Shown here: positions 4,189 to 35,748 of the stretch, one piece after another
Numbering within the stretch: position 1 is the stretch's first letter
Layout: each line of letters begins with the position of its first letter
Source of the DNA: a virus
Lineage: Duplodnaviria > Caudoviricetes
Length of the DNA: 64,000 bases
Virus record (IMG/VR): IMGVR_UViG_3300036987_000310
Span: 224,001 to 288,000 of that record
Direction: 5' to 3' (one strand)
The notes under the pieces: model-generated
What the model was told of the DNA's origin: nothing
The model's database searches: none
What the model saw: only the letters and a program-made list of their open reading frames with translations
Program-made: the position numbers and the translations under genes

Positions 4189-4213
4189 ATACGCGGGCGA
4201 GCGGGTGAGCTAC
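4189..4213 (-). promoter_or_regulatory. ECF-type promoter copy
   Basis: GTAGC-N16-GTAT. Confidence 0.6.
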
Positions 4214-4221
4214 GATCGGGC

Positions 4222-5106
4222 TCAGAGCTTTTTTCTCTCAAGATAGTCGGCCAGGTTGCAGCTGAAACACAGCACGCGGTATCCGTCCGGAAAACCTTCG
4301 CGTTTCAACCATCGATAAAACTGAACGCCGCCAATGACTTTGATTCTCTTTCGGTGTGCAGCTCCGTCCATGTTTGGGTGATCAATGCTGAGGACTCGAA
4401 CATCACCATTTCCACACTGAGCACATCTACACTCACCATTCGAATACCTTGCCAAAACCTCTTTTTTCAGGAGCAGTTCTTGCTCATACCTTCGCGCCAG
4501 ATCCGGCCTGGAACTGCGTGTTGGCCATGATTTGAGAGAGTTGCAATTGTGACATAAAACCTGAAATCCTTCAGGGAACTCGTTCTTTTCCAACCACAGA
4601 TAAAGCTTGGATCCTCCATCTGGTCCTTTGCGATTCTTGTCGTCGATGTGATCGATGGCGAGAGCATAGAGCCTGGATTCGCCGCATGCGCATTTCATGC
4701 TCCCGTTTGAATAACGCGCAAGCACCCGTATCTTGCGTTTCAAAATTCGCTCACGACTTTTTGGTTGAATTTTATCTCGACGTTTGTGATGACTTTTCCT
4801 GTGTTGGGCCTTGCGCTTCTCCGGGTCGCGAGCTGATTCATATCCTGCGCATTGTTCAGGTCGGTCTGCGCGATATTTTCGCAAATAGTCATTGCGACAG
4901 GTGGCACATGCTCCGGCCTTCGTCCATCCATCTGGCGGGTTCGCACCATGTATGGCACACGGTTTCGGCACCCTTGCCATGGCAGCCTCGCGCATACACT
5001 GTTTGCATTCGCGAGCCACTCTGTCTCCGCGACGACGGACATAACACTGCTCTTCGGTCAAGTTGCCGTGTTTCGCACAGGTTCTGATGAACTCCATTAG
5101 AAACAC
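4222..5106 (-). CDS. tandem double HNH homing-type endonuclease
   Basis: Two units: C..IDHID..QVLCHNCN and C..IDHPN..RVLCFSCN; N-terminal Cys/basic region. Confidence 0.85.
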   Translation of the reverse strand: MFLMEFIRTCAKHGNLTEEQCYVRRRGDRVARECKQCMREAAMARVPKPCAIHGANPPDGWTKAGACATCRNDYLRKYRADRPEQCAGYESARDPEKRKAQHRKSHHKRRDKIQPKSRERILKRKIRVLARYSNGSMKCACGESRLYALAIDHIDDKNRKGPDGGSKLYLWLEKNEFPEGFQVLCHNCNSLKSWPTRSSRPDLARRYEQELLLKKEVLARYSNGECRCAQCGNGDVRVLSIDHPNMDGAAHRKRIKVIGGVQFYRWLKREGFPDGYRVLCFSCNLADYLERKKL

Positions 5107-5186
5107 TACCGAATGCAGGTTAAACTTCCGTGTTAGAAGGTGTTATAGGAAGGATGTTAGAGAATGTTAGAGGAAGCTGGAGAAAA

Positions 5187-6722
5187 TTACGGACGGTCAA
5201 TGCGAAGCGGCGCAACCCTACCGAACGCGGGCTTGAACCCCGTGTTGTTGCGCGTAAGCACCCACACCACGTCCATTCCTTTGGGACGCAGCTCGTAGGG
5301 CACCGTGCCGCAGTCGCCGTCCGTCAGGACGACAATCACGTCGAAATCCGTGCCCAGGTGCTTCGGGAAGTCCCGAAAAAACTCGTCGAATACGGTCCCT
5401 CCACGTCCGACCACCTTGGTGCGCTTGAGATCTTCCACCTTTTCCACACGGTGGACCCCCGCCCAGTGGGGAGACGCATCGCAGGGGATGACGTATCCTT
5501 CGGTGTTGTTCCCCAGGACCTGCAGCTGGGAGATTCCGTAAGCCATGTCGTCGTCGCCCATGGACCCTGAGGTGTCGAGCATTGCCAGCCAACGGGGCTT
5601 GTGCATGTAGCGCCGAGGCAGGTACATCTTGGGGTTGGTGCCCAAGAACCGCCGCCTGATGCGCTTCCAATCGTTGTTCAACCCCGCGTCCTGGACCTTC
5701 TTGAGCAGGGCGCTGCGAACGATGTCGGTGAACTTCAGGGTTGGCTTCTTCAACTCGCCGAGCATGCCTTCGATTTCCGACGGCAGACTGCCTCTCATCT
5801 GAGTCGCCTGGTCAGCCGCTCGCATGAGATCTGCCTGGACTTCTTGCTGGGTCATGTCGGTGTCGATGTGAGAATCCATGCCGCCCAGTCGGTCCATGGG
5901 CGACCCACATTTTCCGCATTCATGGCCATGCTCGTGAGGATGCTGTCCGCATCCGCTGCTGGGATTCTGTCCAGGCTGGTTCCCGTCTCCTCCATCCCCG
6001 TCTTCCTCTCCAGGCTGGTCTCCAGGCTGATCCCCAGGGGACTTGCCCTTTTGACCTTGCCCCTGATTGCCCTTTTGCTTCTGGCCGTCTGCGCCCATGG
6101 ACAGGTTTCCGCACTGGGGGCACTTGCGCGGGGACTTGTTCCAGTGGTCGATGATCTCGTCGTAGATGGACTCGGGCGACCGGCCGTGCAGCGACTTGTC
6201 CGCGAAGCAGAACTCCCCTTTCGGAAGCTCCTGCTTGCCGTCGATGAACGACAGGAGGGTGGCGAAGCTCAGGGGCTCCCCGATGTTGCCGCCAAACAGC
6301 TGGCCCTTGCGGTGCGTCTTTTCGTGGTCGGTCCACAGGCACGCGTTGACCACATAGTCCACCGAGATGTTCCACACCTGATGCATCTTCCCCTTGCCTC
6401 GCTTCGGGTGGAAGAAGATGATGTGGTAACCCTCGTGCTGCATGACAGTGGCCAGCTCGTCGGGCGTGAGCTTGTTGAGGAATTCTGGGTTCCAGTAGTA
6501 GGTGCGGCCGTCGGTGGCCGCCGTGTCGATGGGCTGTCCGTGCAGTTCAGTGCACAGCTCGTGCGGCTTGGGCGCCGAGTATGCGAACAAGAATGGGTTT
6601 CCACCGTTCTCCGGCTTGCGGAAAAGCCGGGTCATGCAGGAAGAGACCTTCTCCTGCATGGAGTTGAGCTGGGCGCCGTTGGGCGCCACCTTCCTGGGGT
6701 CCGAGAGTCGTGAACCGATCAT
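5187..6722 (-). CDS. DUF2201-type metallopeptidase-like + vWA domain protein
   Basis: TAATDG and HEGYH (HExxH) in N-terminal part; LDTSGSM and LTDG (MIDAS) in C-terminal part; G/Q/P-rich linker flanked by CPQC/CGKC. Confidence 0.9.
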   Translation of the reverse strand: MIGSRLSDPRKVAPNGAQLNSMQEKVSSCMTRLFRKPENGGNPFLFAYSAPKPHELCTELHGQPIDTAATDGRTYYWNPEFLNKLTPDELATVMQHEGYHIIFFHPKRGKGKMHQVWNISVDYVVNACLWTDHEKTHRKGQLFGGNIGEPLSFATLLSFIDGKQELPKGEFCFADKSLHGRSPESIYDEIIDHWNKSPRKCPQCGNLSMGADGQKQKGNQGQGQKGKSPGDQPGDQPGEEDGDGGDGNQPGQNPSSGCGQHPHEHGHECGKCGSPMDRLGGMDSHIDTDMTQQEVQADLMRAADQATQMRGSLPSEIEGMLGELKKPTLKFTDIVRSALLKKVQDAGLNNDWKRIRRRFLGTNPKMYLPRRYMHKPRWLAMLDTSGSMGDDDMAYGISQLQVLGNNTEGYVIPCDASPHWAGVHRVEKVEDLKRTKVVGRGGTVFDEFFRDFPKHLGTDFDVIVVLTDGDCGTVPYELRPKGMDVVWVLTRNNTGFKPAFGRVAPLRIDRP

Positions 6723-6742
6723 TCTGTCACCTCCACAATCTG

Positions 6743-6767
6743 ATACTCGCGGATCGGCGAGAGCTCC
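6743..6767 (-). promoter_or_regulatory. ECF-type promoter copy
   Basis: GGAGC-N16-GTAT, then SD GGAGGTGA and ATG of the vWA gene. Confidence 0.75.
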
Positions 6768-6782
6768 ACCGCGATTTGAGCT

Positions 6783-6980
6783 TCATTCTGGCAGGGTCCA
6801 GCCTTGAACATATCCTACACGAAATCGGTGACGCAGCTCCACCAAGGAGAACACGATTTTGTCGGGTTCTCCTGAAACCATGACGTCGAGCGAATCTGGC
6901 TCGATTTTGAGACCTTGACCCTGAAGGAATTTGACAATTTTGTTACGGGCTCGTTTCGTGGTTTGAATCTGTGCCTTCAT
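6783..6980 (-). CDS. hypothetical protein
   Basis: ATG overlaps the upstream stop; MKAQIQTT.., 65 aa. Confidence 0.6.
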   Translation of the reverse strand: MKAQIQTTKRARNKIVKFLQGQGLKIEPDSLDVMVSGEPDKIVFSLVELRHRFRVGYVQGWTLPE

Positions 6981-7543
6981 GCTGTCATCACCACCTTCAC
7001 CGAGTACAGGTCCCATCCCTTTTGGATAGCTTTCGAGGTTATTTCCTTGCGCCTGAGGACCAAATCCAGCTTCTCTGCCCTCTCCTTGATGCGCCAGGAG
7101 AGCTGTTTGTACCTTTGGAGCCCGTCTTCGAGGTCCGACCGCTGCGGAATCGGCACTGTTGCTCGTGCAGAATTTGCAACCCAAGCATTCTCCTCTTCGA
7201 TGGACTCGTGCAGCCTGCACAACCGCAGGGCGATCATCTTGGCAATGACGGTTGCGGGCGTTGGCGTTTTCTTGACGATCTTCGGCACCACTTCCGAAAT
7301 TTTCTTCAAAACGGCCGCCTCGTCGCCGAAGAACACGAGATTGGACGTGACGCTTCCTCGCTGAAGCGAGCCCCAAACCATGTCTGGCGTCTGCACCCCT
7401 CCTCGAGTTTCGAGGGAACTCATGAAAGCGGACACCTTTTGGAAGTGTCCGTGGGCGCTGTGAAAAGAGAAATCCTTGATCTGCTTGAAGCAGTCTTGTT
7501 TTGCTTTCAGCGCATTGGAAATTGCCTGAGAATATTTCAGCAT
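6977..7543 (-). CDS. hypothetical protein with C-terminal tag
   Basis: Downstream of promoter and SD; ends WDLYSVKVVMTA*. Confidence 0.85.
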   Translation of the reverse strand: MLKYSQAISNALKAKQDCFKQIKDFSFHSAHGHFQKVSAFMSSLETRGGVQTPDMVWGSLQRGSVTSNLVFFGDEAAVLKKISEVVPKIVKKTPTPATVIAKMIALRLCRLHESIEEENAWVANSARATVPIPQRSDLEDGLQRYKQLSWRIKERAEKLDLVLRRKEITSKAIQKGWDLYSVKVVMTA

Positions 7544-7562
7544 TCAATCACCTCCTGGCCCG

Positions 7563-7587
7563 ATACGCGCTCGGATCGCCAACTGCC
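7563..7587 (-). promoter_or_regulatory. ECF-type promoter copy
   Basis: GGCAG-N16-GTAT. Confidence 0.7.
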
Positions 7588-7595
7588 GATGCGCT

Positions 7596-7835
7596 TCATG
7601 AATTGTGCACAAACTCACACAAGCGCTCGTCGCAGGTTGGCCTTTCGCGAACGTCCGGCGCCCTCAAGTTGCACCGCGCACATCTTCTCTCGCGATAGAT
7701 GATGGTCCTTCCGCGGTCGTCGACGTCTCGAACAACTGTCATTCTCCACTGGTGTCCTTTTTTGTCCGGGGGATCAGGTTTGCTGCCATTCTCCCATTCC
7801 CAGGCTCGCTCATTGTCGACGTGTTGGAAGTTCAC
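7596..7835 (-). CDS. Zn-binding microprotein with C-terminal tag
   Basis: GTG overlaps the upstream TGA; CARC..C; ends CDERLCEFVHNS*. Confidence 0.7.
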   Translation of the reverse strand: MNFQHVDNERAWEWENGSKPDPPDKKGHQWRMTVVRDVDDRGRTIIYRERRCARCNLRAPDVRERPTCDERLCEFVHNS

Positions 7836-8095
7836 GACTCCATCACTTCTCGCATGCGGAGCTCGTCTCGAGTGACGAATCGAGCTCCTGGCGGCAAGTT
7901 TTCTGCCTTGATCCGGTGAGCGTGGCAAAGAGCTCTCCACATTTCAAGGCCGTTGTCGAGCCTCAAAATCCACTGAGACGCTTTCTTCTGGCAGCAAAAG
8001 CATTTTTTGCCTGGCAAAGTTTTGCAGCGAGGGATTTTTATATGGGAAATTTTAAATGTTCCGTTGAAAAAATCAGGTGGGAATCTTTTTGGCAT
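7832..8095 (-). CDS. Zn-finger microprotein with C-terminal tag
   Basis: TGATG coupling; CFCC..CHAH; ends RDELRMREVMES*. Confidence 0.8.
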   Translation of the reverse strand: MPKRFPPDFFNGTFKISHIKIPRCKTLPGKKCFCCQKKASQWILRLDNGLEMWRALCHAHRIKAENLPPGARFVTRDELRMREVMES

Positions 8096-8493
8096 CAGTC
8101 CCTCATTATGTCTCGGATGTTGTCCATGAGGCACTTGTTCGGGTCGTGAAAATCTCGGCGCCCGTGGCGCCTTTTGATTGCTCTGCCGCATCCGGGGCAC
8201 TGAACCGGCTTCTTTTCCGGCTTCTCTTCTTGCGGAAACATGACGAGGGGGGCCTCAGAATACGGGCGATAGCTAACTTTCCACCGTAGACGGAACACCT
8301 CTTTCAGAGAAGCATGCTTCTTTCTTTTCGGAGCGATTGCCCACCCGATGGCGGCAGCCTGCTTCAAACACTCCCAAATGTGTTCTGGCGGCTCTGCCAA
8401 GAAATCGGCCACGTCTTTTGCAGAGAATTCTTTCAAGTTCGGATCCGACAGGATCCTTTCGATTCTCGGCATGAGGTCAGGCCGTGCAGACAA
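8095..8493 (-). CDS. HTH-like + Zn-binding protein with C-terminal tag (start uncertain)
   Basis: CPGC..H..HDP..C; ends MDNIRDIMRD*; paralog of 8505-9176. Confidence 0.75.
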   Translation of the reverse strand: MSARPDLMPRIERILSDPNLKEFSAKDVADFLAEPPEHIWECLKQAAAIGWAIAPKRKKHASLKEVFRLRWKVSYRPYSEAPLVMFPQEEKPEKKPVQCPGCGRAIKRRHGRRDFHDPNKCLMDNIRDIMRD

Positions 8494-8504
8494 TGTGTGC
8501 CTCG

Positions 8505-9176
8505 CTAGTCTTTCATGATCAGCGCGATCATGGTCATCCTGCATTGCTCGGGGTCGTGCACTTCGGCTCTTGCGTGCCGACGAGCTGGACAGTTGCACCA
8601 CGGACAACGCCCGTTGCCGCGAGCGGGGCGAGGTGCCCGGCTCGCGGGCTTCCAAACGAAATGACGACGATCGACCAGACGATACAAGACGCCGCTTGCT
8701 GCCGCAAGATCTTGAGGAACCGTGACGAATGGCACGGCGCCAGACCAGGTAATGACCCCGCTTTCTCTCAACTGCTCCAAATATTTTTCGACATCATGGA
8801 TGCCAGCAAAGTCAGCAGCGCTTGCGACCCCGACCTTTTCGAAAACCCGCCGCATTTTGAGAACGATTGACGGGTCGAGCTTTTCTCGCTTCTTTGGCTT
8901 TGGCGGCACAGCGGGAGGCGGAGCTGCAAAGCTGTTTTCATGCCTCACTGCGCCGCCACGAAGGGCCAAAGCGTCCAAACAATCTTGGACGTCTTCCACG
9001 TGTTCGCGAAGTTCTTTGGCGAGGACCGCGGGAGACGTCGTGCGAGCCCAGTCCAAAGCCTGGAGCTTCTTGCCGACTTGAATCAACAAGTCTGGGCGCG
9101 CTTTTCGGACTGGCGGAGGGTCGCCCTTTGCGGGCTTGGGCTTAGGGTCCTTTCGCCGGTCTCGGTTCTTTGCCAT
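8505..9176 (-). CDS. wHTH-like + Zn-binding protein with C-terminal tag
   Basis: CPWC..H..HDP..C; ends MTMIALIMKD*. Confidence 0.8.
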   Translation of the reverse strand: MAKNRDRRKDPKPKPAKGDPPPVRKARPDLLIQVGKKLQALDWARTTSPAVLAKELREHVEDVQDCLDALALRGGAVRHENSFAAPPPAVPPKPKKREKLDPSIVLKMRRVFEKVGVASAADFAGIHDVEKYLEQLRESGVITWSGAVPFVTVPQDLAAASGVLYRLVDRRHFVWKPASRAPRPARGNGRCPWCNCPARRHARAEVHDPEQCRMTMIALIMKD

Positions 9177-9200
9177 GGCGTCACCAGTTCATTCTTTGGT

Positions 9201-9716
9201 TTATTCTTCGTGCACCAATTTGAGCAAACAACTGCGCGTGCGGCATTCGTTCAGCGGTTTCCCGAAAGCTCTATGCTTCGGGTCTGTGCACCGTTTCACT
9301 GGCCATGAGCGAACACGAAGAGCCACGTCCTGTGCTTGGGAAAGTAGCGCGGTCGCAAGTTTTGGATCCTTGGCAGCGCGAAGCATCGTTTCTTTGTCCG
9401 TTAGAACGTTGTAAAAGTTCACCGGGTCTTTGGCTTTTTCCATCAGATTGCAGATCGTGCGGAAAACCACGCTGTCTGTTTGATTCCTGACCCCGACAGC
9501 CAGAAACATGCGCTTCTGCATGTTTCTGACCATATCTCTTTCCAAGTTTTCGGCCTGTTTTCGTCGACACTCAGCCCAGTAATTTCGTTTGACGCCAGCC
9601 TCTCCATATTCTTCTAGCGCCTTTTTTCCTTCCCACAAACGTCGAAGTTTCAGTTCATGGTCTTCGACACCGAAATGACGCCGAGTCAAAGCGCGAAATC
9701 TTTTGAAGGACATCAT
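9201..9716 (-). CDS. hypothetical protein with C-terminal tag
   Basis: Ends RSCLLKLVHEE*. Confidence 0.8.
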   Translation of the reverse strand: MMSFKRFRALTRRHFGVEDHELKLRRLWEGKKALEEYGEAGVKRNYWAECRRKQAENLERDMVRNMQKRMFLAVGVRNQTDSVVFRTICNLMEKAKDPVNFYNVLTDKETMLRAAKDPKLATALLSQAQDVALRVRSWPVKRCTDPKHRAFGKPLNECRTRSCLLKLVHEE

Positions 9717-9720
9717 GGCG

Positions 9721-10026
9721 TCACCTAGACATTACTTCGTACACGGTGAAATCTCCAGGAGCGAGACCATCGAGATGAAAAATCACCACCTGGCGAAAGT
9801 TTTTCGTCAACGTGTCAAAAAACACGGGGGCACAGTCGCTGCACACGAGCTTTACCTTCCCGGCGTGCGGGCTTCCTGGCTTGAAGCGCGCGAAATCTGC
9901 TTCGTTCAGATCGTACAAAACAGCCACAGCAATGCTGTGCCCGTTTGAAGACGGAAGCGCAGTCGAGTTTAAGCCGCAAGCGATCACGGCCTGGGCTAGA
10001 GCCTCGTCGAACTGGCACTGGTTCAT
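9721..10026 (-). CDS. hypothetical protein with C-terminal tag
   Basis: ATGA overlap with upstream gene; ends GDFTVYEVMSR*. Confidence 0.75.
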   Translation of the reverse strand: MNQCQFDEALAQAVIACGLNSTALPSSNGHSIAVAVLYDLNEADFARFKPGSPHAGKVKLVCSDCAPVFFDTLTKNFRQVVIFHLDGLAPGDFTVYEVMSR

Positions 10027-10235: not shown

Positions 10236-10284
10236 GACTTGTGACTCCTCGACGAATCGGAGACCGTGTGATCTCCGCGATTGA

Positions 10285-10510: not shown

Positions 10511-11617
10511 TCAGTCGTTCAAGCTTTTTCTGATTTTCACGTATGTGGCCATCAGCTCCGGGACGCGGGTGAGCTTCCAGTCCTGGATGATCTTCATGCT
10601 CAGGACGGACTTCACGGCACCGATGGCGAACTCCGGAGGAATCTCTCCCAACCATCCGAAGACATTCTTGGTGACCTTGAGAATCCTCTCCTCCTGCTTC
10701 GCCTTCTCTGCGCCGGACTTCTGGTCTCGGCCGAGCTGGGAGATGATGTTGCAGCCCGCGATGGCGCAGACCATGATGCGGTCCACGGTCATGTTCTCGA
10801 TGTTGGGCTTCTTGCCGTCCTTGACCAGAGCATCGATGATGGGCTCGATGTGCCGGTAGTGGTCGAGCCACACCCTGAACTTGATTGCGGCAGCCTGGCC
10901 CACGCGGCCTGCCACGAGCATGGTCTGGAAGTCGACCGTCTCCTTCATCACCAGGTCCAGGTCCCTGGCCGCCATGGTCCAGGCGCGAGGGGACGGGTGG
11001 CAGTAAGCCGTGTCGTCGCCCTCGGGAGGCGGCATGAGCAGGTATTCCTGGTTCTTGCTCAAGAAGCCGACGATGAGGCCGTTCACGCCCTCTTCTGCGG
11101 CCCAGATCTGCCACGGCTCGAAGCTCGACTCCACCTTGTACACCATGCACCTGTTGGTCAGGGCGTGGGAGACGGGGAGCGAGAAGGCGCCTTCCTCGGG
11201 CAGGTTGCCCGTCGAGATGATGCTGTGAATGTCCAGCGGACGCCCGTTGATCGTCCTGAACTGGAACAGTTCCAGCATCGGGTTCTGCAGCTCGGGCTTG
11301 GCCTTGTCGATCTCGTCCACCACGAGAACGACGCCCTTGTCGCGCGTGCCCTTGATCGGGAGGAACTTGGGCGTGGCGTACTCGGAGAGCTTGGTCTCCG
11401 GGTCGATCATCGGCAGGCCGTTGAGGTCGGGGGCCTCGAGAACGGAGAGGTTGAGGTAGACGGCCTCGCGGCCCTTCTCCTTGGCCGCCTGGAAGGCCAT
11501 TTCAGTCTTGCCCGTACCGGCCGCGCCGAAAATCATGATGTTGCCGCCGGAGTCGATGCTGAAGCGGTAGAGGGTCTTGAGCGTTGCCTGATCTACGTTG
11601 TGGATTCCCGTGAGCAT
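10511..11617 (-). CDS. MoxR/dynein-related AAA+ ATPase
   Basis: Walker A GAAGTGKT, Walker B LVVDE, STGN, ALTNR (Arg finger), PSPRAW. Confidence 0.9.
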   Translation of the reverse strand: MLTGIHNVDQATLKTLYRFSIDSGGNIMIFGAAGTGKTEMAFQAAKEKGREAVYLNLSVLEAPDLNGLPMIDPETKLSEYATPKFLPIKGTRDKGVVLVVDEIDKAKPELQNPMLELFQFRTINGRPLDIHSIISTGNLPEEGAFSLPVSHALTNRCMVYKVESSFEPWQIWAAEEGVNGLIVGFLSKNQEYLLMPPPEGDDTAYCHPSPRAWTMAARDLDLVMKETVDFQTMLVAGRVGQAAAIKFRVWLDHYRHIEPIIDALVKDGKKPNIENMTVDRIMVCAIAGCNIISQLGRDQKSGAEKAKQEERILKVTKNVFGWLGEIPPEFAIGAVKSVLSMKIIQDWKLTRVPELMATYVKIRKSLND

Positions 11618-11683: not shown

Positions 11684-11791
11684 GACCCGGTTTGAATTTC
11701 GTGGTTTCGATTCAAGCGCCTCGCCCGGCTCCACTAGCAATACGCAGCAGTGCGCTGCGCTTCCGACTGTTTTGAAACAGTATCGTATTAT

Positions 11792-12526
11792 ATGGAACCG
11801 AAATTGTGTGTCAAACATCTCAAACACTGCGAAATGAAGTTGCAAGGTCGAGTTTGGAAATGCCCTGCGTGTTACAACAAGAGGAGGCGGGAGCGGTACG
11901 CTGAGAGAAAGGACGACCCGAAGCGCAAGGAGCTTGCTGCCTCTTGGCGAAATCGTCTTCGCCCGAAGATGCGCGAATGGCGAGAATCTTACAACGAAAA
12001 GTTGAAACGATCCGCGTTCGAAGCATACGGAGGCGTCAGGTGCAAATTGTGTGGGGAGAACGAAATTGACAGGCTGGCGCTCGACCATGTCGCAAACGAT
12101 GGACATGCCGATCGTTCTGCGACAAAAAGATCTGGCACGAAGCTTTATTCTTTCCTCAAAACGCACGGGTGGCCCCCAGGTTTTCAAGTGCTTTGCCACA
12201 ATTGCAACATCTTGAAGCGCGCAGCCAGGTATTCAGAATGCGCAAAGACGCGCAAACAGCAAGCCACTCTTGCTAGGGCCAAGTGGATCAAAACGCAGGT
12301 TGTTGTTCATTATGGCGGCGGATTCGCCGCATGCGTCAAATGCGGGTACGACAAACTTGAGGCCCTTACTCTTGATCACGTGAACAATGACGGTTATGCA
12401 ACCCGCGGGAACCTCAGCCCCGGGAGGACCGCATACCTCAAACTTATGAACAGCGGCTACCCTCCTGGGTACCAAACTTTGTGTTTCTGCTGCAACATGG
12501 AAAAGGAAATCATGCTGCGCAGGTGA
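11792..12526 (+). CDS. tandem double HNH homing-type endonuclease
   Basis: LDHVANDG..QVLCHNCN and LDHVNNDG..QTLCFCCN; paralog of 4222-5106. Confidence 0.85.
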   Translation: MEPKLCVKHLKHCEMKLQGRVWKCPACYNKRRRERYAERKDDPKRKELAASWRNRLRPKMREWRESYNEKLKRSAFEAYGGVRCKLCGENEIDRLALDHVANDGHADRSATKRSGTKLYSFLKTHGWPPGFQVLCHNCNILKRAARYSECAKTRKQQATLARAKWIKTQVVVHYGGGFAACVKCGYDKLEALTLDHVNNDGYATRGNLSPGRTAYLKLMNSGYPPGYQTLCFCCNMEKEIMLRR

Positions 12527-12653
12527 TCTCCGGTGTGGCTCAAGACTGTACATTGAAGACTGCGCTTTGCTGTGTCGCACAGCCAGCAATACCCAGCAGG
12601 CCGCCGAGCCTTCGATCCCGTCTAAAGCCGCCTCGTCCCTGTTCAAACAGGGC

Positions 12654-22858: not shown

Positions 22859-22934
22859 GGGATCGTGACGCAATGGTAGCGTACCAGCCTTTTAAGCTGT
22901 GTTGTTGTGGGTTCGAGTCCCACCGGTCCCACCA
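22859..22934 (+). tRNA. tRNA-Lys(UUU)
   Basis: Acceptor stem GGGATCG/CGGTCCC, anticodon loop CTTTTAA, T-loop GTTCGAGT, encoded ACCA end. Confidence 0.92.
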
Positions 22935-24545: not shown

Positions 24546-24584
24546 CGGAGGTGCGAGACGAACCAACACGCGAAGGAGCCAGCC

Positions 24585-24761
24585 ATGAGACTGAAAGTTG
24601 AAAACCTACCGATGGCTTGGCGAGAGGCTTGTCAAGCCATCGCTGACCCGCAACGGGTTCCTCAAACGCATGTGCGCCTAACGCCCCTCCCCGATCGACC
24701 AGGGTGGATTCTTGAGGATGCGTCAGACCCTATGGAAGAACGGGCTCCCCTCGACGCATAG
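24585..24761 (+). CDS. small hypothetical protein
   Basis: SD AAGGAG; 58 aa. Confidence 0.6.
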   Translation: MRLKVENLPMAWREACQAIADPQRVPQTHVRLTPLPDRPGWILEDASDPMEERAPLDA

Positions 24762-24762
24762 C

Positions 24763-24787
24763 GCAAGGCGGGCGATCGCGCGCGTAT
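24763..24787 (+). promoter_or_regulatory. ECF-type promoter copy
   Basis: GCAAG-N16-GTAT. Confidence 0.75.
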
Positions 24788-25031
24788 CGGGAGGTGCGAG
24801 ACGGCGAAACCAGAGAGACACATAATATTTTTCACCGCTACGCCAAGGAGAGTGAGAAAATGGGGCATTAGCGATTGCCCAGATCGATCTTTGTCCCCCT
24901 CGGGGGTCGATCCTATGGGCCAACAGCGGAGGGGGCGGGCGGCCTGATCAACCACCCGATGGCCGAAGCGGGCCGGGCTCCCTCATGGGACCCGGCCATC
25001 GGCTTGTCGGGGATGCCCTTTGAAAGCCACG

Positions 25032-29676: not shown

Positions 29677-30191
29677 GACTGTCAGAATCGGGCGCTTTCA
29701 AGCGTCCAAAGTTTATGTGCACGAAAATTCTCCTGAGCCAAATGGAGCAACTGCGATGGGATGGCGTTTCGAGACTCGTTGGCAACGAATGGTCCTTGCA
29801 GTTTTTCACTGACTCCTGGACCAAGGGGCTGGCCGTCACTCTCTACTTGACTGGCTTCAAAAGGGAAAAGAGGAAATGTCTGGTCCTGCGTCAAGGCCAA
29901 CGAGTTAAGCTGATTCGAGAAATGGTTTGCCTCTGGGCGGGGCGCGAGTCTGTCGAGTCGACTGCCTGGATTGGCAAAAGGATCGACAAAGACACGAGAA
30001 TCGGGCCGAATTTGCAGCAGTTCGTCAACGCCATCATGTCCAGGTGGGTCGACGGAAACCAGGTGGCTTGCGACCGGGCCATGGGCCAGCTCAGGCGAGC
30101 TGTGGCGAAGGCTCAAAAAGCAGGGCTGACTGAGGCTGACATGAAGGCTGCCTGGGACGAGGCTTTGCTCGCTCAAATGTTGTTGTCGTGA
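29673..30191 (+). CDS. hypothetical protein, tag variant
   Basis: Ends AAWDEALLAQMLLS*. Confidence 0.75.
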   Translation: MRLSESGAFKRPKFMCTKILLSQMEQLRWDGVSRLVGNEWSLQFFTDSWTKGLAVTLYLTGFKREKRKCLVLRQGQRVKLIREMVCLWAGRESVESTAWIGKRIDKDTRIGPNLQQFVNAIMSRWVDGNQVACDRAMGQLRRAVAKAQKAGLTEADMKAAWDEALLAQMLLS

Positions 30192-30290
30192 TCAACTAGC
30201 CCATGCCAGAGAGCTGGAAAATACCACTGAAAAGTTGGTATGATTGAGCGATGCAGTCCAGGACTGGCTGATGACTGTTTGAAACGGGTC

Positions 30291-30315
30291 GGAGCTGCCA
30301 GCACGCTGCGCGTAT
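30291..30315 (+). promoter_or_regulatory. ECF-type promoter copy
   Basis: GGAGC-N16-GTAT. Confidence 0.75.
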
Positions 30316-30334
30316 CGACCGCTGGAGGCACCAC

Positions 30335-30550
30335 ATGAATTTCGTTTGCTCTCAGATCGAGACATGCGGCGGCGCGGATGCCGTGTATGTCTATTTCCGC
30401 CAGGAGCCAACTGAAGCCGACTGGGAAGAAGCGCTAGCTTCTGAGCAGGAAGGAAACCCGGACGAAGCGTGGGAAGACCGAGAAGAAGTTCCCACCGCTT
30501 TGACTGAAGCAATGCAACTCAAGCGATACTACATGGGAAGAGTTGGCTAA
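30335..30550 (+). CDS. small acidic protein, paralog of the C-terminal half of 25612-26034
   Basis: SD GGAGG. Confidence 0.8.
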   Translation: MNFVCSQIETCGGADAVYVYFRQEPTEADWEEALASEQEGNPDEAWEDREEVPTALTEAMQLKRYYMGRVG

Positions 30551-31003
30551 ATGGGAAAGCGGGACCCGTTGGCTGCGTGTCCAGATTTTCAGGACTTTGT
30601 TGACTCCATGGACTTCCAACAGTTGACGGAGCTGGAGACGGTTGTGCGCGTCGCAATGGCTCGACAAAAGCGTGACATGGCAAAAGCTGCCGGGTACGCT
30701 TTTAGCGAACGCTTTGCCGATCGCGCACCTGAAAGCTACGTCACAGGCATTTCAGAGCTGCTTTTCAACACTCCAATTGGGTTGTTGAAAGTCGTTGACT
30801 TGGAGTTCGAGGAACCAACAGTTACCTTGAATAACAAGAAGGTTGGAGAAACGGGGGCTATTGGAGCTTTTGAGCTGGATTTGATAGTTCACTTGCATGG
30901 GGCCAGGAACCTAGGGGAAGCTGAGTGGGAAGTTATGCGCTCCGTGCAAAAATACCGCGATGTCATTGACGAATGGACGGTTTCCGCCGTGCAAGAGGAA
31001 TAG
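30551..31003 (+). CDS. hypothetical protein with C-terminal tag
   Basis: Ends VIDEWTVSAVQEE*. Confidence 0.8.
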   Translation: MGKRDPLAACPDFQDFVDSMDFQQLTELETVVRVAMARQKRDMAKAAGYAFSERFADRAPESYVTGISELLFNTPIGLLKVVDLEFEEPTVTLNNKKVGETGAIGAFELDLIVHLHGARNLGEAEWEVMRSVQKYRDVIDEWTVSAVQEE

Positions 31004-31028
31004 GCAAACCTGGCCCTCAAAAGCTAAC

Positions 31029-31053
31029 GCAGCTCGGCGCGGTTCGCGCGTAT
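31029..31053 (+). promoter_or_regulatory. ECF-type promoter copy
   Basis: GCAGC-N16-GTAT. Confidence 0.7.
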
Positions 31054-31097
31054 TCCCCGATGCGGCAATAACGCCGCCTGTTTCCCGAGGTGACGAC

Positions 31098-31358
31098 ATG
31101 ACGAAGCTGGACCTGTTGGCGCGGATTGACCGGCTGGTGGAACAGGGCGCAGTGTCAGTGCAGGCGCTGCCCGAGGGCGTCCGGCTGGACGAGCTGGACG
31201 ATTTCGCCTGCGCGGTCGACCTGTTCGGCGATGCCACCCCGGCGATCGACATCGAGCTCGAGCGATATGTCGACGTCCAGCCCACCGGCCATCGCCGCTG
31301 GGACTCGTCCGAGGACTGCGGCGAGCACTTCATCGACAGCGGCTACATCCTGGACTGA
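31098..31358 (+). CDS. acidic hypothetical protein
   Basis: SD GAGGTGA; high GC3. Confidence 0.75.
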   Translation: MTKLDLLARIDRLVEQGAVSVQALPEGVRLDELDDFACAVDLFGDATPAIDIELERYVDVQPTGHRRWDSSEDCGEHFIDSGYILD

Positions 31359-31398
31359 TGCCGGACGAGCCACCACCAGGGGGTGCTGTTCCCCGAGG

Positions 31399-31423
31399 CG
31401 ACATCGCGCGCTTGTCCGAGTAT
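31399..31423 (+). promoter_or_regulatory. ECF-type promoter copy (weak -35)
   Basis: CGACA-N16-GTAT. Confidence 0.5.
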
Positions 31424-31435
31424 CGGAGCTAGACG

Positions 31436-31645
31436 ATGACTAACTCGAACGGAGAACCCGTGATGAGACACGTTCTTGTGGAATGCGACGGCGAGCACTT
31501 CCTGGTAAAGGTTGCCGACGACAACGAGTGGGAGCAAACCCTTCGGTACTTCAACGACTGCGGCTTGAAATTCTCCACCCGAGAGTTGCTCGAACCGCTT
31601 GTGCCGGGTGAGCTGAGCGACATCCTTGCCCCAAGGGACGAATAG
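31436..31645 (+). CDS. small acidic protein
   Basis: ORF follows a promoter copy. Confidence 0.65.
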   Translation: MTNSNGEPVMRHVLVECDGEHFLVKVADDNEWEQTLRYFNDCGLKFSTRELLEPLVPGELSDILAPRDE

Positions 31646-31665
31646 CGAGGAATGGGAGAAAATCC

Positions 31666-31899
31666 ATGAAGTACGTCGTCATCGTGGGCCATCCTTTGAT
31701 GCAAAGGGACCCCTGCATGTTCACGGACATTCAGGGCGTGGTTGGCTGCCAGTCTCTGGAGCAGGTTCAGGAGGCGATAAATGCCAACCGCGTCCACCGA
31801 AATGGAGACTGGACTGTGTTCGAGCTGGTCGACGGCAAGTTCCAACAGCGGAGCGTCTGCTTCGAGCCTGACGGCAGAACTGTCAAGAATGTCCAATGA
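31666..31899 (+). CDS. small hypothetical protein
   Basis: SD GGGAG. Confidence 0.65.
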   Translation: MKYVVIVGHPLMQRDPCMFTDIQGVVGCQSLEQVQEAINANRVHRNGDWTVFELVDGKFQQRSVCFEPDGRTVKNVQ

Positions 31900-32128
31900 C
31901 AACCCGATGCAGTGCGACGGAGTGGACTTTGGCGGAAACTGGAAACGATGCAAAAACAACCCGGTCGAGTACTGGGTGCGAGTTGAACCCAGCTTCCACT
32001 GGGTCAAGCGCATTAGCTTGTGCGCAGAGTGCGCCCGCTTTTACTGGATCCAAACCGTCTATTCCAAGCATTCGTTCAAGCAAGCAACCTTGCAGGAGTG
32101 GGTTTGCCACTGCGTGCAGGAAGAATAG
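31889..32128 (+). CDS. Zn-finger microprotein with C-terminal tag
   Basis: C..C..LCAEC; ends TLQEWVCHCVQEE*. Confidence 0.75.
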   Translation: MSNDNPMQCDGVDFGGNWKRCKNNPVEYWVRVEPSFHWVKRISLCAECARFYWIQTVYSKHSFKQATLQEWVCHCVQEE

Positions 32129-32159
32129 CCCAGTCCAAACCGTGGCGGGAGGGTGACGA

Positions 32160-32405
32160 ATGACAAAGCAAGAACTTTTCGAACTGATTGACGGCTACTG
32201 GCCCGTGATCTCCAAAGGCAGGGTTGTTGGGTTGGAGAACGACGAGGGAGAAAAGCCTCTTCCTGACGGGGTTGTTGGCTACGTCGACGCCCACCCTGAA
32301 GGCTCGGACCGGGGAGGCTACGTTCCGTTTCTGGAGACAGACGGCGAACAGGTCTACCACTACGCTTGCAAATGGCGATGGCTAAGCGGAAGTCAACGGC
32401 GATAA
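32160..32405 (+). CDS. hypothetical protein
   Basis: SD GGAGGGTGA. Confidence 0.65.
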   Translation: MTKQELFELIDGYWPVISKGRVVGLENDEGEKPLPDGVVGYVDAHPEGSDRGGYVPFLETDGEQVYHYACKWRWLSGSQRR

Positions 32406-32722
32406 TGAGACACGAGCGCTATCACCAGCCAAAAGCAGTGCCCTGCGAATGCGGCTCCACAGAGGCGTACTGGCATGGGCCCGAGACCGGCCTTCGCGAA
32501 TATTGCTGCGACGCGTGTTGGGCTCGTCAGCAAAAGCTGTGCGTCTCCTGCGGCGAGCCCATTCCGCCCAAGCGGCTGGAAATCCTGCCGGGCACCACGA
32601 CCTGCGTCGCCTGCTCCTCGGTCACAAAAAAGAGCATTCAAGACATGCCTGGTCGAGCCGTGGTTCAGCACACGGGCGGCCTGCACGAGAAATATTTGCA
32701 CGAAGAGGACTTGGAAGACTGA
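32405..32722 (+). CDS. DksA/TraR-type C4 zinc finger protein
   Basis: CVSCGEPIPPKRLEILPGTTTCVAC, preceded by a second CECG..CCDAC Zn motif. Confidence 0.75.
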   Translation: MRHERYHQPKAVPCECGSTEAYWHGPETGLREYCCDACWARQQKLCVSCGEPIPPKRLEILPGTTTCVACSSVTKKSIQDMPGRAVVQHTGGLHEKYLHEEDLED

Positions 32723-32723
32723 G

Positions 32724-32918
32724 ATGGCTAAACAACCAATTGACATCCCGTGCGCGTGGTGCTTCGGAGGAACCTTCATGGCCGTGCATTTCATGCAAGA
32801 CTTGGACGGCACAGGACCACTGACGCCACTGTGTGTGGGCCATACCATATGCACTGAAGGATTGTTCATTCCTTTGGAAGAAGGACTAGACGCCTGGATG
32901 TACGAAGAAGAGGACTGA
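32724..32918 (+). CDS. Zn-finger microprotein, tag-less family member
   Basis: CAWC..LCVGH; ends PLEEGLDAWMYEEED*. Confidence 0.7.
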   Translation: MAKQPIDIPCAWCFGGTFMAVHFMQDLDGTGPLTPLCVGHTICTEGLFIPLEEGLDAWMYEEED

Positions 32919-33021
32919 AGAACAGGTTTGGCCCCGTCTTAGGGCCAAGACCCCGTCCCAGGTAGTACAAAAGCCAGGAAGACCCCTCCGCGTGGCAGGA
33001 CGGGCCGGTTCGAACAGAACC

Positions 33022-33046
33022 GAAACCCGAGCGCGCTCGTGCGTAT
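33022..33046 (+). promoter_or_regulatory. ECF-type promoter copy
   Basis: GAAAC-N16-GTAT. Confidence 0.75.
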
Positions 33047-33100
33047 TCGCGACGGGGAACAACGCAATGACCCGGCCGACCGGGTTTTAAGGAGCTAGCC

Positions 33101-33493
33101 ATGATGAAGGTGACCATCCGAGTCGAGTTGACCGTGGACGAGGACGAGATGGCAATCGAGCAGATCGACCTGCCCGCCAAGATTCGCCAGCTTTGCCGCG
33201 ACGCGTTCGGCGAGTTCGGAGACCACAGGCGCGATGCCAAGGCGTACGTTGCCAAGCGGTACTCTGGCGCGTGGTTCGACTCTGCGAACAAGGTCCGCGA
33301 GGTCGAAGGACGTGTCGAGCTGGCCTGCCTCTTGAGCGCGGGGGTCTCGGACGCGATCATCGAGGTCCAGGCATGTTGCCCCAAGTGCGGCGCTGTCGAG
33401 CCCAGGGCTGACTCCACATGCCCCGTTTGCCGGGACGCCTACTGCAGCATGATGGAGAGCGCCGACGCCCAGATGGGAGACTCCACGCCATGA
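33101..33493 (+). CDS. hypothetical protein with C-terminal double CxxC
   Basis: SD AAGGAG; CPKC..CPVC. Confidence 0.75.
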   Translation: MMKVTIRVELTVDEDEMAIEQIDLPAKIRQLCRDAFGEFGDHRRDAKAYVAKRYSGAWFDSANKVREVEGRVELACLLSAGVSDAIIEVQACCPKCGAVEPRADSTCPVCRDAYCSMMESADAQMGDSTP

Positions 33494-33732
33494 AAATCAC
33501 CGTCGTGACCCTTTACAGGGGAGACACCGCTGACCACTACGTCGGAGCCGTCGCGGGGTCTTTGACCCACGCCCAGCGGCTGGTCGTCGCCAAGCGCCTT
33601 GACGCCAAGTTTGGCGAGGAAGACGAGAACGACGAGCGCCTGGTTTACTTCCGGGAGATTGTCGTGGCCCAAAGCGTCAACGATTTCAAAGGGGTTCAGA
33701 ACATCGACGACGAAGACTACGCGGGAGACTGA
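33490..33732 (+). CDS. small acidic protein
   Basis: ATGA coupling. Confidence 0.7.
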   Translation: MKITVVTLYRGDTADHYVGAVAGSLTHAQRLVVAKRLDAKFGEEDENDERLVYFREIVVAQSVNDFKGVQNIDDEDYAGD

Positions 33733-33991
33733 TATGTGGCAGGAAGTCGAGCAAGATCTGCCACATATTTGAGTTGAGCCAATGGCCCTGACAAACCACG
33801 CAAGCCCGGCTTGCTTTCCCATAGCCTAGTGGAGGTTAGCGAGAATGGGGTGGCGATGCGTTTGGTTAAGAAACAAGTGGCTGCAGCGCGTGCAAGGATA
33901 CCGTTCGAACAGCTGCTGCGCGCTGGTTTGCTTGCAGCAGCTGGCAATGGCGGAAACCCGCCGAGCCCTGTCTTGCCCGAAGGAGGGTGAA

Positions 33992-34168
33992 GTGAAAACG
34001 TACCGAGTCAAAATCATGGACGAGAGCGGTTGCCCAGCCGCCATCGAAGTGCGGGTCGGAGACGCGGACAGCCAGCGCGAGGCAGAGCTTCGAGTCAAGG
34101 AGCTGATTGTGCCTGGCGTCGAAGTGGTGTCCGTCGAATTGGGCGAATCGGACGAAACCGAGCCATGA
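33992..34168 (+). CDS. small acidic protein
   Basis: SD AAGGAGG, GTG start. Confidence 0.6.
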   Translation: MKTYRVKIMDESGCPAAIEVRVGDADSQREAELRVKELIVPGVEVVSVELGESDETEP

Positions 34169-34344
34169 CCTGCTTCTGGTGCCTTTGCAGAGCCGTGCAG
34201 CTTTGGCTCCCAAACAGTCCGTCCGATGGTCCGCTCTGGATCTGCGGCAACCATTCGGAAGACTTCGTCAGAGTGTTGGCGGAGTCAGGGTTCAGGCAGG
34301 CAACGCCTGAAGAGTTCGACATGGGCGTAGTTCATCAGACGTAG
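34165..34344 (+). CDS. Zn-finger microprotein with C-terminal tag
   Basis: CFWCLC..ICGNH; ends TPEEFDMGVVHQT*. Confidence 0.75.
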   Translation: MTCFWCLCRAVQLWLPNSPSDGPLWICGNHSEDFVRVLAESGFRQATPEEFDMGVVHQT

Positions 34345-34359
34345 ACCCATGGCATCACT

Positions 34360-34830
34360 TGACAAAATATGTGGCATATATTTGTGGCAAAGCGCGGCTC
34401 GGTCGGGTCCAAGCATTCAAGCCTGGCGTGCATGGTTGTCTGCGCTCAAATGTGTGGCAGGATTTTTGGCGATCTGTGCCAGGGGGTCTGGTTGGAAACT
34501 GGCGGCTTCAACAGGCCGCAGACGCTTTGAAGGAATCCTTCAAAAGCGCGGTTCAAACCCCTGGCAGGAAGTTTTAAAACCCATGGCATATCCTTCAACG
34601 AGAAGGGCATGAGCAGCCCTGGATCGGCTTCCAACTCTGCCTGATTTGCGCCATTCTTCAAAAGACATTATGCCAATCCTTTTTAAACATTCTGCGCCAA
34701 GATCAGCCGGACGCCATGGCAGGGGTTTGAGACAGGGGTTTGCCAAAGGACCGACCGGAGCAGAGCCATCCACGGATTGCCCCAGTGCAGTCCTTTGGCA
34801 AACCCCTGGCAGGGGTTTTCGAACGCCACG
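34360..34830. repeat. non-coding array of TGGCAGG(GGTTT)/AAACCCCTG direct and inverted repeats
   Basis: AAACCCCTGGCAGG at 34555-34568 and 34800-34813; 18-bp perfect inverted repeat 34733-34750/34791-34808. Confidence 0.75.
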
Positions 34831-34861
34831 GCAGGACTGTTCAAAATACATGCCGCCCATT

Positions 34862-35092
34862 TCAAGCAGCGCGACTGTGCTTGAGCGCCAAGGTGAGCTC
34901 CCAGCGCGCAACCAACTGCGCGGGAAGCAAAGAGATGTCTGCCAAGGGCCACGCGCAGTACTCCCACCCCTCCGAGCCGAATCTCTGGATGAGGGATTTG
35001 TCCTTGGGACAGAAGTAGTGATCGGTCCCGCGAAGGGTGCCTAGGTAAACGCAAGCGTCGCAATCATGGGTGTGCAGCGGCATACTCGTCAC
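34862..35092 (-). CDS. small Cys/His-containing protein
   Basis: SD GGAGGTGA; HTHDCDAC..DHYFC. Confidence 0.7.
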   Translation of the reverse strand: MTSMPLHTHDCDACVYLGTLRGTDHYFCPKDKSLIQRFGSEGWEYCAWPLADISLLPAQLVARWELTLALKHSRAA

Positions 35093-35103
35093 CTCCTGTT
35101 AGA

Positions 35104-35153
35104 ACCCAAACCTGTAGCCCGAAGCTAGCGGGACTCGAGATACAGGTTTGGGT
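35104..35153. terminator. 13-bp inverted-repeat hairpin between two minus-strand genes
   Basis: ACCCAAACCTGTA-N24-TACAGGTTTGGGT. Confidence 0.5.
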
Positions 35154-35204
35154 GGATCCCCTCGGGGACCCACCCTTCAGGCGGGAGCGGTGGCGGGATG
35201 TCGG

Positions 35205-35681
35205 TCAGCGGACGGAGAACATCGCGGCAGTGACGCCGAGCTCGGGCTCTTGGCCGATGGCCCACACCCGGAGGGAGACCGAGAGCTGCTTGGCGTAGCG
35301 GGACCCGATGTGGCTCAGGTAAGCCATCTGTCCGACGAACTTGAACCCATCGGCCTTGTACTCGGTCTCCTCGTCGGTGGGGGCGCCGTTCAGGAGGGCC
35401 TCGATGGCCTTGGTGGCGGTGGCGGCGTGAGAGGACATGAGCCCGCGACGATTCTTGTCCTTGGTCTCCTTGGTGGCCTGCTCGAACTCGGTCTGCAGGT
35501 GGTACATCAGGAAGGCGTTGGCGATCCGGACGTCATCCCTGTCCTCCAGAACCCGGCGGACGCCCTTCTCGCCGATGAAGGGGTACTGGCGGCCATCCCG
35601 GTTCACGACGGGCGGAATCTCGGAGGCGAGGGCGGCGAGGGTCGAGTCGAGGTCGGTGCAGTTGTCGAGATTGATCGTCAT
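35205..35681 (-). CDS. hypothetical protein
   Basis: SD AAGGAG; very high GC3. Confidence 0.8.
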   Translation of the reverse strand: MTINLDNCTDLDSTLAALASEIPPVVNRDGRQYPFIGEKGVRRVLEDRDDVRIANAFLMYHLQTEFEQATKETKDKNRRGLMSSHAATATKAIEALLNGAPTDEETEYKADGFKFVGQMAYLSHIGSRYAKQLSVSLRVWAIGQEPELGVTAAMFSVR

Positions 35682-35723
35682 GGCTGGCTCCTTCGCGGGT
35701 GTTGGTTCGTCCCGCATCTTCCG

Positions 35724-35748
35724 TTACGCGGGGTCGGGCTCGATCTCC
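35724..35748 (-). promoter_or_regulatory. ECF-type promoter copy (GTAA variant)
   Basis: GGAGA-N16-GTAA; leader nearly identical to 24557-24588. Confidence 0.65.

Follow-up and report, generated by a model that had tools for sequence, protein, structure and literature searches.

The DNA analysed here (hereafter the window) is a stretch of 64,000 nucleotides (nt) comprising bases 224,001-288,000 of IMG/VR record IMGVR_UViG_3300036987_000310, a complete phage genome of 376,674 bp with direct terminal repeats and 51% GC (G000 in the comparisons below). It carries a short intergenic motif made of two sequence blocks held at a fixed distance, 24 copies of which had been read in an initial annotation as promoters for a sigma factor of the extracytoplasmic function (ECF) type. 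All 24 are present where they had been placed, and the spacing is identical in every copy. We number the motif from the first base of its upstream, or -35, block (G1), so that the -10 core is G22-T23-A24 and position 34 lies downstream; for minus-strand sites, the start used in the initial annotation is the low coordinate of the 25-mer. The genes around these sites are almost all orphans, and among 20 proteins of the regulon Pfam and PHROGs recognised only a MoxR-type AAA+ protein, a DUF2201 vWA/metallopeptidase and a DUF6011 protein. By a simple gene call, there is about one copy of the motif per three genes.

The conserved parts of the motif read C0-G1-n-A3-R-n-T6 and C19-G-C-G22-T-A24-Y-C-G-G. 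All 24 aligned sites share G22, T23 and A24, whereas C19 and G20 are kept in 22 sites apiece and position 21 is C in 18 and A in the other six; position 25 is T in 21 sites, C in two and A in one, as had been reported. The upstream block had been described as a 5-bp -35 element. It is present but degenerate, with only G1 (22/24), A3 (22/24), T6 (18/24) and C0 (15/24) well kept and with A4 and C5 found in 12 and 11 sites, respectively. The reduced pattern GNA-N15-CGNGTAY has 20 matches in the window, compared to 1.43 +/- 1.18 in dinucleotide shuffles, and none of 100 shuffles reached 20. A weight matrix run over the whole genome gave 40 matches at 12 bits or more and 36 at 16 bits or more, with one and no matches, respectively, in a Markov control, so that the genome-wide scan proposed in the initial annotation yielded 36-40 copies, well above control.

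All matrix matches except one weak one lie within genome positions 208,410-259,870. Those left of 236,613 are on the minus strand and those right of 236,654 on the plus strand, pointing outward from window position ~12,630, and the regulon is therefore a 51-kb divergent block, the right two thirds of which fall in the window. The 24 reported sites are all real, but the regulon extends beyond them, with ten copies left of the window (genome 208,410-222,238) and five weaker ones inside it. The copies are intergenic and oriented into the next gene, as had been claimed of every one of them, but a few have no open reading frame (ORF) behind them: site 22760 precedes a tRNA-Lys gene, and the sites at 24763, 12613 (minus strand) and 20527 are followed by no ORF. 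The first proteins encoded behind 33 copies are mutually unrelated except for one weakly similar pair, and we therefore ruled out that the motif was carried along by gene duplication.

Copies of the motif in the window, with weight-matrix scores. Rows marked as additional were absent from the initial annotation.

2736-2760, minus strand: additional weak copy (GAAAGC...CGAGTAC), an exact match to the reduced pattern, 12.4 bits
4189-4213, minus strand: copy, 32.2 bits
6743-6767, minus strand: copy before the DUF2201 vWA/metallopeptidase gene (5187-6722), 36.0 bits; the G001 and G002 orthologs keep a copy at the same distance
7563-7587, minus strand: copy, 28.2 bits
10285-10309, minus strand: copy, 23.2 bits
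11659-11683, minus strand: copy before the MoxR-type AAA+ gene (10511-11617), 35.4 bits; the orthologous putative promoter is kept in G001 and G002
11740-11764, minus strand: additional copy 81 bp upstream of the 11659 site (putative tandem promoters), 21.3 bits
12589-12613, minus strand: additional weak copy, back to back with 12654 at the divergence point and antisense to ORF 11792-12526(+), no ORF behind it, 14.2 bits
12654-12678, plus strand: first plus-strand copy, 28.4 bits
13463-13487, plus strand: copy, 33.0 bits
16266-16290, plus strand: copy, kept by the G001 ortholog, 30.3 bits
17639-17663, plus strand: copy, 35.4 bits
18083-18107, plus strand: additional copy (..CGCGTAG) followed by GGAGGTGAC and ATG, 22.5 bits
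20527-20551, plus strand: copy with no Shine-Dalgarno (SD)-led ORF of at least 40 codons within 130 nt, 35.3 bits
21404-21428, plus strand: copy, 28.5 bits
22760-22784, plus strand: copy whose first downstream gene is tRNA-Lys(UUU), 35.7 bits
23640-23664, plus strand: copy, 28.0 bits
24521-24545, plus strand: copy with a longer conserved leader, 35.6 bits
24763-24787, plus strand: top-scoring copy of the window, followed by ~245 nt without an ORF, 38.1 bits
25032-25056, plus strand: copy (GTAC), 35.2 bits
26056-26080, plus strand: copy, 25.6 bits
27156-27180, plus strand: copy, 30.6 bits
28084-28108, plus strand: copy, 32.4 bits
30291-30315, plus strand: copy, 33.3 bits
31029-31053, plus strand: copy, 31.2 bits
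31399-31423, plus strand: weakest of the 24 (CGACAT...GAGTAT), 19.2 bits
33022-33046, plus strand: copy, 27.8 bits
35724-35748, minus strand: copy (GTAA) that points left from the block's right edge, 25.1 bits
35870-35894, plus strand: additional weak copy (..TGGGTAT), 16.6 bits

Conservation of the two blocks among related huge phages

We compared G000 in full with three related huge-phage genomes: G001 (362 kb, 57% GC), G002 (436 kb, 50% GC) and G003 (a 274-kb fragment, 66% GC). An exact-pattern search of IMG/VR returned, among the matches listed, mostly single chance matches; G002 and G003 were spotted there. The sequencing runs found to contain the phage were all of DNA and come from groundwater, coal, soil and wetland metagenomes; none of those listed for 20-28 kb was of RNA. 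The phage collection contained no close cultured relative, by DNA or by sigma protein, and a literature search found no description of the motif or of the clade.

G001, G002 and G003 retain both blocks at unchanged spacing; there the motif again lies in divergent blocks of small genes, and the spacer drifts. The G001 form is GGAG(C/G)T...CGCGTAC, the G002 form G(C/T)AAAT...CGTAT (~40 copies) and the G003 form G(G/T)A(A/G)GT...GCGTAC; overall, the two blocks are found at the same spacing in seven related huge phages of 37-66% GC. The initial annotation had described the spacer as invariant and GC-rich, and its length is indeed fixed in every copy, but the GC-rich sequence is not conserved in the relatives. 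In 14 orthologous pairs of sites lying at the same distance from the start codon, a comparison biased towards matches in that the relative's site was chosen with the same matrix, G1 and G22-T23-A24 are 100% identical, G20 92% and A3 85%, with spacer columns at 7-71%. An unbiased scan, in which we varied the spacer length from 13 to 17 and the base after GT, gave a single excess, at N15 plus GTA, in each of the four genomes (36 versus 7.7 in G000, 41 versus 5 in G001, 79 versus 8.7 in G002 and 24 versus 1 in G003). In G009, a more distant relative whose version of a 223-amino-acid (aa) candidate phage sigma factor described below is only 53% identical, the excess is instead at N14 plus GT(T/C), and its cassettes (L235-L250) read GGAA(A/G)T-N14-CGT(C/T), for example GGAAGTCGTCCGCTCCGCTCGTCC.

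These comparisons also bear on whether the repeat is a promoter at all, rather than a repressor operator, a hairpin or RNA-processing signal, or a recombination cassette, which we judge to be highly improbable. Such a role would fit the self-complementarity of the G000 spacer, which exceeds that of shuffles (z of -4.0 for column shuffles and -3.3 to -4.8 for dinucleotide shuffles), and the near-identity of several copies over 15-18 nt. However, the dyad is significant only in G000, being absent in G001-G003 (z of -1.3 to +1.0), and its register varies from site to site; a hairpin or operator is therefore not the conserved function, and we ruled it out as such. What is conserved is a pair of asymmetric blocks with fixed spacing and a fixed distance to an SD or ATG, at sites that are only intergenic. 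Nor do upstream hairpins stand out: folding of the upstream sequence against column shuffles gave z values of -1.4 and +0.6 in G000 and +0.5 and +0.7 in G001, with no excess, and terminator-like sites occur at chance level in the block, ruling out an upstream terminator or stem-loop of the kind found in promoter-early stem-loop (PeSL) cassettes.

Probable promoter class and position of gene starts

The initial annotation assigned the motif to a promoter class other than sigma-70, and the sites agree with that assignment. Position 28, the would-be T at -7, is not T in any of the 24 sites, and no TTG lies at the correct distance for a sigma-70 -35 element. Between 12 and 32 kb of the window, sigma-70-like sites number 8, compared to 5.8 +/- 2.3 expected, and none lies before a gene. 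We also considered whether the host primary sigma might read the motif together with a phage activator or appropriator, in the style of T4 MotA/AsiA. A candidate exists in a tandem region-4 protein (genome 306,550-307,326), which carries sigma region 4 twice, lacks region 2, is conserved throughout G000-G003 and could act on the upstream block, which is separable from the -10. However, the -10 itself is not sigma-70-like, with its invariant G-T-A, its lack of TAnnnT and the absence of T at position 28, and a change of -35 reader alone would not account for its recognition. We regard this explanation as quite improbable.

The proposed ECF architecture holds in its main features, namely a -35 block, a fixed spacer and a CGT-type -10 (PMC5758882), but the -35 block lacks the canonical AAC. 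The CGT core of the -10 is complete in the 18 sites with C21 and is kept in G001-G003. The rigid spacer of ~16 nt corresponds to N15 when A3-A4-N5 is aligned with AAC, one nt shorter than the N16 of sigmaW promoters, and the relatives, as well as the class of sites without an SD described below, read G-n-A-A-A-T, with AAA or AAT in the place of AAC. The ECF-class promoters of B. subtilis (sigmaW, sigmaX, sigmaM and sigmaV) include TGAAAC-N16-CGTA and, for sigmaV, GCAAAC ... CGTC, and the last base of the -10, CGTA versus CGTC, separates sigmaW from sigmaX/M promoters (PMC5758882). The last -10 base of the phage motif changes with the sigma lineage, as seen in G009, which is what an ECF-type reader predicts.

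To locate gene starts, we searched for a relaxed core, G[GCT]A[AG]NTN-N14-GTA[TCA], and required that an ATG open an ORF of at least 40 codons. An ATG lies at exactly position 34 in 14, 10, 10 and 6 cases in G000, G001, G002 and G003, respectively, compared to 0.4 or fewer in Markov controls, and a second ATG peak lies at positions 43-45. The pattern GNAAAT-N15-GTA-N9-ATG likewise has 11, 21 and 11 matches in G005, G006 and G007, three additional relatives, with 0, 0 and 1 for a reversed-pattern control. Among the copies of the 51-kb block, a GGAGG begins at positions 32-35 in 22 of 39 G000 sites, most often at 34, with the start codon at 44-47, and G001 is alike. The SD is thus closer than the 15-50 bp that had been reported, with GGAGG 7-10 nt after GTAT in these sites and a mode of 9 nt. 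The earlier observation that no copies occur right of 36 kb holds for the GC-rich form, but a form of the two-block core that lacks an SD and has its ATG at position 34 is found at 39964-39988(-) and at ~13 other places in the genome.

Sites of the two-block core without an SD, and the tRNA gene, in the window.

2827-2851, minus strand: core without an SD (GGAAGT-N15-GTAC); an ATG at 2817 (position 35) opens a 359-codon ORF, 1738-2817
39964-39988, minus strand: core in the no-SD form (GTAAAT-N15-GTAA); ATG at 39955, exactly position 34
22859-22934, plus strand: tRNA-Lys(UUU), 66 nt downstream of the start predicted for site 22760; tRNA was the sole Rfam match

In the four fully scanned genomes, then, position 34 is occupied either by the G that opens GGAGGTGAC or by the A of an ATG that has no SD. 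The same position is a purine in both cases. The simplest reading is that transcription begins there, and from this geometry we predict that messages start at motif position 34, which lies 10 nt beyond the A of GTA. Such a start would place G-T-A at -12 to -10, in the same register as the sigmaE GTC element in E. coli.

The genes of the block have a strong and uniform SD, GGAGGTGAC, and many genes outside it have none; the two styles of translation initiation follow promoter class. We tentatively suggest, as a possibility that we hold to be less probable than the promoter assignment itself, that a single ECF-type sigma of the phage would set the transcription start with such precision that its promoters yield only two kinds of message, AUG-first (leaderless) for scattered genes and SD-first for the 51-kb block. 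This would amount to a built-in, two-mode translation programme that separates accessory from other genes at the ribosome, with the -10 base and spacer co-evolving with the sigma across the clade to give orthogonal sigma/promoter pairs.

Several other features accompany the motif. A (C/T)T(C/G)AA patch lies 8-12 nt upstream of the -35 block in most copies (for example, at window 12642-12648 and 30279-30285), and 21 of 24 sites have an A at -8, at about -42 relative to the predicted start. The patch is seen in G000 and G001, though not clearly in G002 or G003, and may represent an UP-like element or the site of a second protein. Sites 24521 and 35748(-) share a leader of ~45 nt, GACGAACCAACAC.CG.GAAGGAGCCAGCCATG (24546-24590 and 35665-35723(-)), and the proteins behind them are unrelated. 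Site 24763 has only the first part of this leader (24788-24810) and opens the ORF-free stretch between copies at 24788-25031, which may be a small RNA; Rfam had no match there. At the divergence point, ORF 11792-12526(+) contains two repeats of the form C-x2-C ... LDHVxNDG(H/Y) ... C-x-x-C-N and looks HNH-like by eye, with no match in Pfam.

A second promoter-like class, TGTA(A/T)nnT, has an ATG 12-13 nt after the G, a T at -7, no SD and no fixed upstream block. At that offset, all of the genomes examined, G008 and G009 included, show an approximately tenfold enrichment, and examples in the window (G of TGTAA) lie at 40775, 43049, 48572 and 63642. This class may belong to a different sigma.

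Candidate sigma factors and proposed order of transcription

The initial annotation had left open whether a host or a phage ECF sigma reads the motif, and the phage does encode an ECF-like candidate, the 223-aa protein at genome 88,170-88,841, outside the window. It matches Pfam Sigma70_r2 (PF04542) at 27.9-29.4 bits (cut-off 24) and also matches an NCBIfam sigma70-ECF model. In its AlphaFold2 model (pLDDT 83.5), a sigma-2 domain is followed by a disordered linker and then by a C-terminal domain of four helices, and the top Foldseek matches are almost all ECF sigmas, including sigmaE region 2 on -10 DNA and an engineered sigmaE bound to GTAAAA. The match to sigmaE region 2 has a template-modelling score of 0.5 and a root-mean-square deviation of 3-4 A, and full-length fold alignments to sigmaE, SigH and AlgU cover 176-193 columns. 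By sequence, the protein had no significant match among solved structures. Identity to its counterparts is 74% for G001 and 60% for G002, and its family, which is found across the clade, numbers at least 289 members encoded on contigs of huge phages that reach 436 kb.

The 223-aa gene is preceded by a host-type promoter, TTGTGC-N14-TGG-TATGTT (genome 88,114-88,142), and a near-identical one precedes a second sigma-like gene, which lies in the window and had been proposed as a possible reader of the motif.

Second sigma-like gene and its promoter in the window.

58915-58943, plus strand: host-type extended -10 promoter (TTGCGC-N14-TGG-TATGTT) before the 509-aa gene, near-identical to the one before the 223-aa gene
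59027-60556, plus strand: 509-aa sigma-like protein, second candidate reader and a core gene of the clade, with weak fold matches to sigma factors, a sigma region 4 (-35-binding) domain and DnaA domain IV

The shared sequence CATTG(T/C)GC-N14-TGG-TATGTTT occurs before these two genes, a pair unique in the genome, and host-type extended -10 sites before genes number only a handful in G000. The orthologues of both genes in G001, G002 and G003 have TTGnnn-N17 promoters with an extended -10, and 12 of 16 IMG/VR orthologues of the 223-aa sigma, from 34-63% GC, have TTGnnn-N13-15-TGnTAnnnN within 140 nt upstream. A further host-type extended -10 site (TTGCAA...TGGTAGTGT) lies at window 46429-46458, 67 nt before the gene for a 372-aa PG_binding_1 peptidoglycan-binding protein (46496-47614).

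The 509-aa protein remains a candidate reader, alone or with the small sigma, but the 223-aa protein fits better, since its plain two-domain ECF build suits a two-block promoter. For the larger protein speak an NCBIfam sigma70-ECF match (E 1.3e-5, residues 290-422), the Pfam region 4 carried by some members of its family, which their sources annotate as sigma24, its presence as a core gene in G001, G002, G003, G005 and G006, and the promoter it has in common with the small sigma gene. Against it, this copy has no Pfam region 2 or region 4, its fold matches all have E values of 0.0065 or more, and its architecture is atypical for a sigma, at ~500 aa with a zinc-finger insert and an extra helix-turn-helix domain. 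In addition, the family copies in G008 and G009 lack the C-terminal part that resembles DnaA domain IV, yet G009 has the GGAAAT -35 block, and we therefore ruled out that domain as the -35 reader. Overall, we consider recognition by the 509-aa protein unlikely, if still a serious alternative. Another phage protein, a SigF/FliA-like sigma (genome 194,783-195,478), is an unlikely reader of a clade-wide motif because it is not conserved in G001; its best matches are 25% identical in G001 and 38% in G002, though both genomes keep the motif.

A host alternative sigma of the ECF type, exploited by the phage, would also account for the ECF-like architecture (PMC5758882), and nothing that we found points specifically to the host. 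This option, one of the two raised in the initial annotation, now appears very improbable: relatives whose GC content spans 37-66%, and which probably do not have one host in common, show the same blocks and spacing, and the phages carry their own ECF-type sigma behind a host-type promoter. Moreover, ECF sigmas are normally kept inactive and would be a poor basis for ~38 operons.

We think it rather probable that the repeats are a phage-specific class of promoters with ECF architecture, read by host RNA polymerase with a phage-encoded sigma, for which the 223-aa protein is the best candidate. Several observations weigh against this view. The fold matches of the 223-aa model are weak (E of 0.03-1), and Pfam found no region 4 in it. 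No motif copy lies upstream of its gene, so that it would lack the autoregulation usual for ECF sigmas. Where AAC would be expected, the -35 block has AAT, AGT or GCT, and the spacer falls one nt short of that of sigmaW promoters in B. subtilis. The sigma model also does not account for the additional conserved bases C19-G20 and C26-G27-G28 near the -10, or for the (C/T)T(C/G)AA element. Finally, the 509-aa protein is a second core sigma-like protein with the same host-type promoter and the same distribution in the clade, and these data do not separate the two.

If the phage-sigma explanation is right, the host sigma would first read a handful of promoters, including those of the two sigma-like genes, and the phage sigma would then activate ~38 short operons covering the 51-kb orphan-gene block, the MoxR/vWA pair and tRNA-Lys. 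Messages from the block would start directly at the Shine-Dalgarno sequence, GGAGGUGAC, and the same core elsewhere in the genome would yield leaderless, AUG-first mRNAs. The initial annotation called the regulon early, which is unlikely in the strict sense: both candidate readers lie behind host-type promoters (TTGnnn-N17-TGnTAnnnT), and the block has none, so that it probably comes later in a cascade. The block is more likely to be delayed-early or middle than immediate-early.

For an uncultured clade of huge phages, this provides a readable transcription map, in which a few host-type promoters serve regulators and a two-block promoter serves ~38 operons of orphan genes. The predicted fixed start, with an SD or AUG at +1, is a sharp hypothesis that does not depend on knowing the host. 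The lineage switch from N15-CGTA to N14-CGT(C/T) is natural material for studying ECF promoter specificity and may yield orthogonal expression parts.

Comparison with known systems

The principle is not new, with well-known examples both of sigma cascades in phages and of promoter regulons specific to them. Arbiol, Comeau and Krisch reportedly described, in 2010, the PeSL cassettes of T4-type phages, in which a stem-loop precedes an early promoter of the host sigma-70 type. As in those phages, repeated promoter cassettes here flank small orphan genes in a hyperplastic region, and by analogy the conserved unit of promoter plus ribosome-binding site could serve as a recombination handle. Unlike PeSL units, the promoter is not of the sigma-70 type and upstream stem-loops are not above shuffles.

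The two blocks, rigid spacing and lack of a sigma-70 TAnnnT resemble the B. subtilis promoters of sigmaW, sigmaX, sigmaM and sigmaV. As in B. subtilis, the -10 has a CGT core whose last base sets specificity, CGTA in this phage and CGT(C/T) in the G009 lineage, and the -35 blocks of relatives (GCAAAT, GTAAAT) differ by one base from the GCAAAC of sigmaV. The differences are the substitution of AAC by AAT, AGT or GCT, the shorter spacer, a sigma that is borne by the phage and has no autoregulatory copy, and a regulon that is a block of phage genes rather than a stress response; the start sites here are also predicted from sequence only.

The sigma cascade of phage SPO1 has the same outline (PMC13401047). 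In both phages, host-type promoters drive phage sigma genes and a distinct phage consensus marks a large set of later genes, with the difference that the timing in our phage is inferred. Neither the sigmas of SPO1 nor their consensus sequences are known to be related to this motif.

Among phages, the nearest precedent is the sigma of phiEco32, and that of Salmonella phage 7-11 is similar. The phiEco32 sigma (gene phi32_36, annotated as 'RNA polymerase sigma factor') has an experimentally determined promoter consensus, TAATGTATA, and the middle/late promoters of the phiEco32 and 7-11 sigmas read tAATGTAtA and TGATGT, respectively (PMC4331800). phiEco32 is a 77.5-kb coliphage, compared to the 377-kb phage studied here, its promoters consist of one -10-type element and lack a fixed -35 block, and its sigma is not detectably close to that of our phage (hhalign probability 15% over 51 columns of region 2). 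In phiEco32 and 7-11, however, a small phage sigma redirects the host RNA polymerase after an early phase that depends on the host sigma, as we propose for the phage studied here, and the TGTA(T/A) promoter core of phiEco32 is comparable to the CGTAT and TGTAA forms found in this genome.

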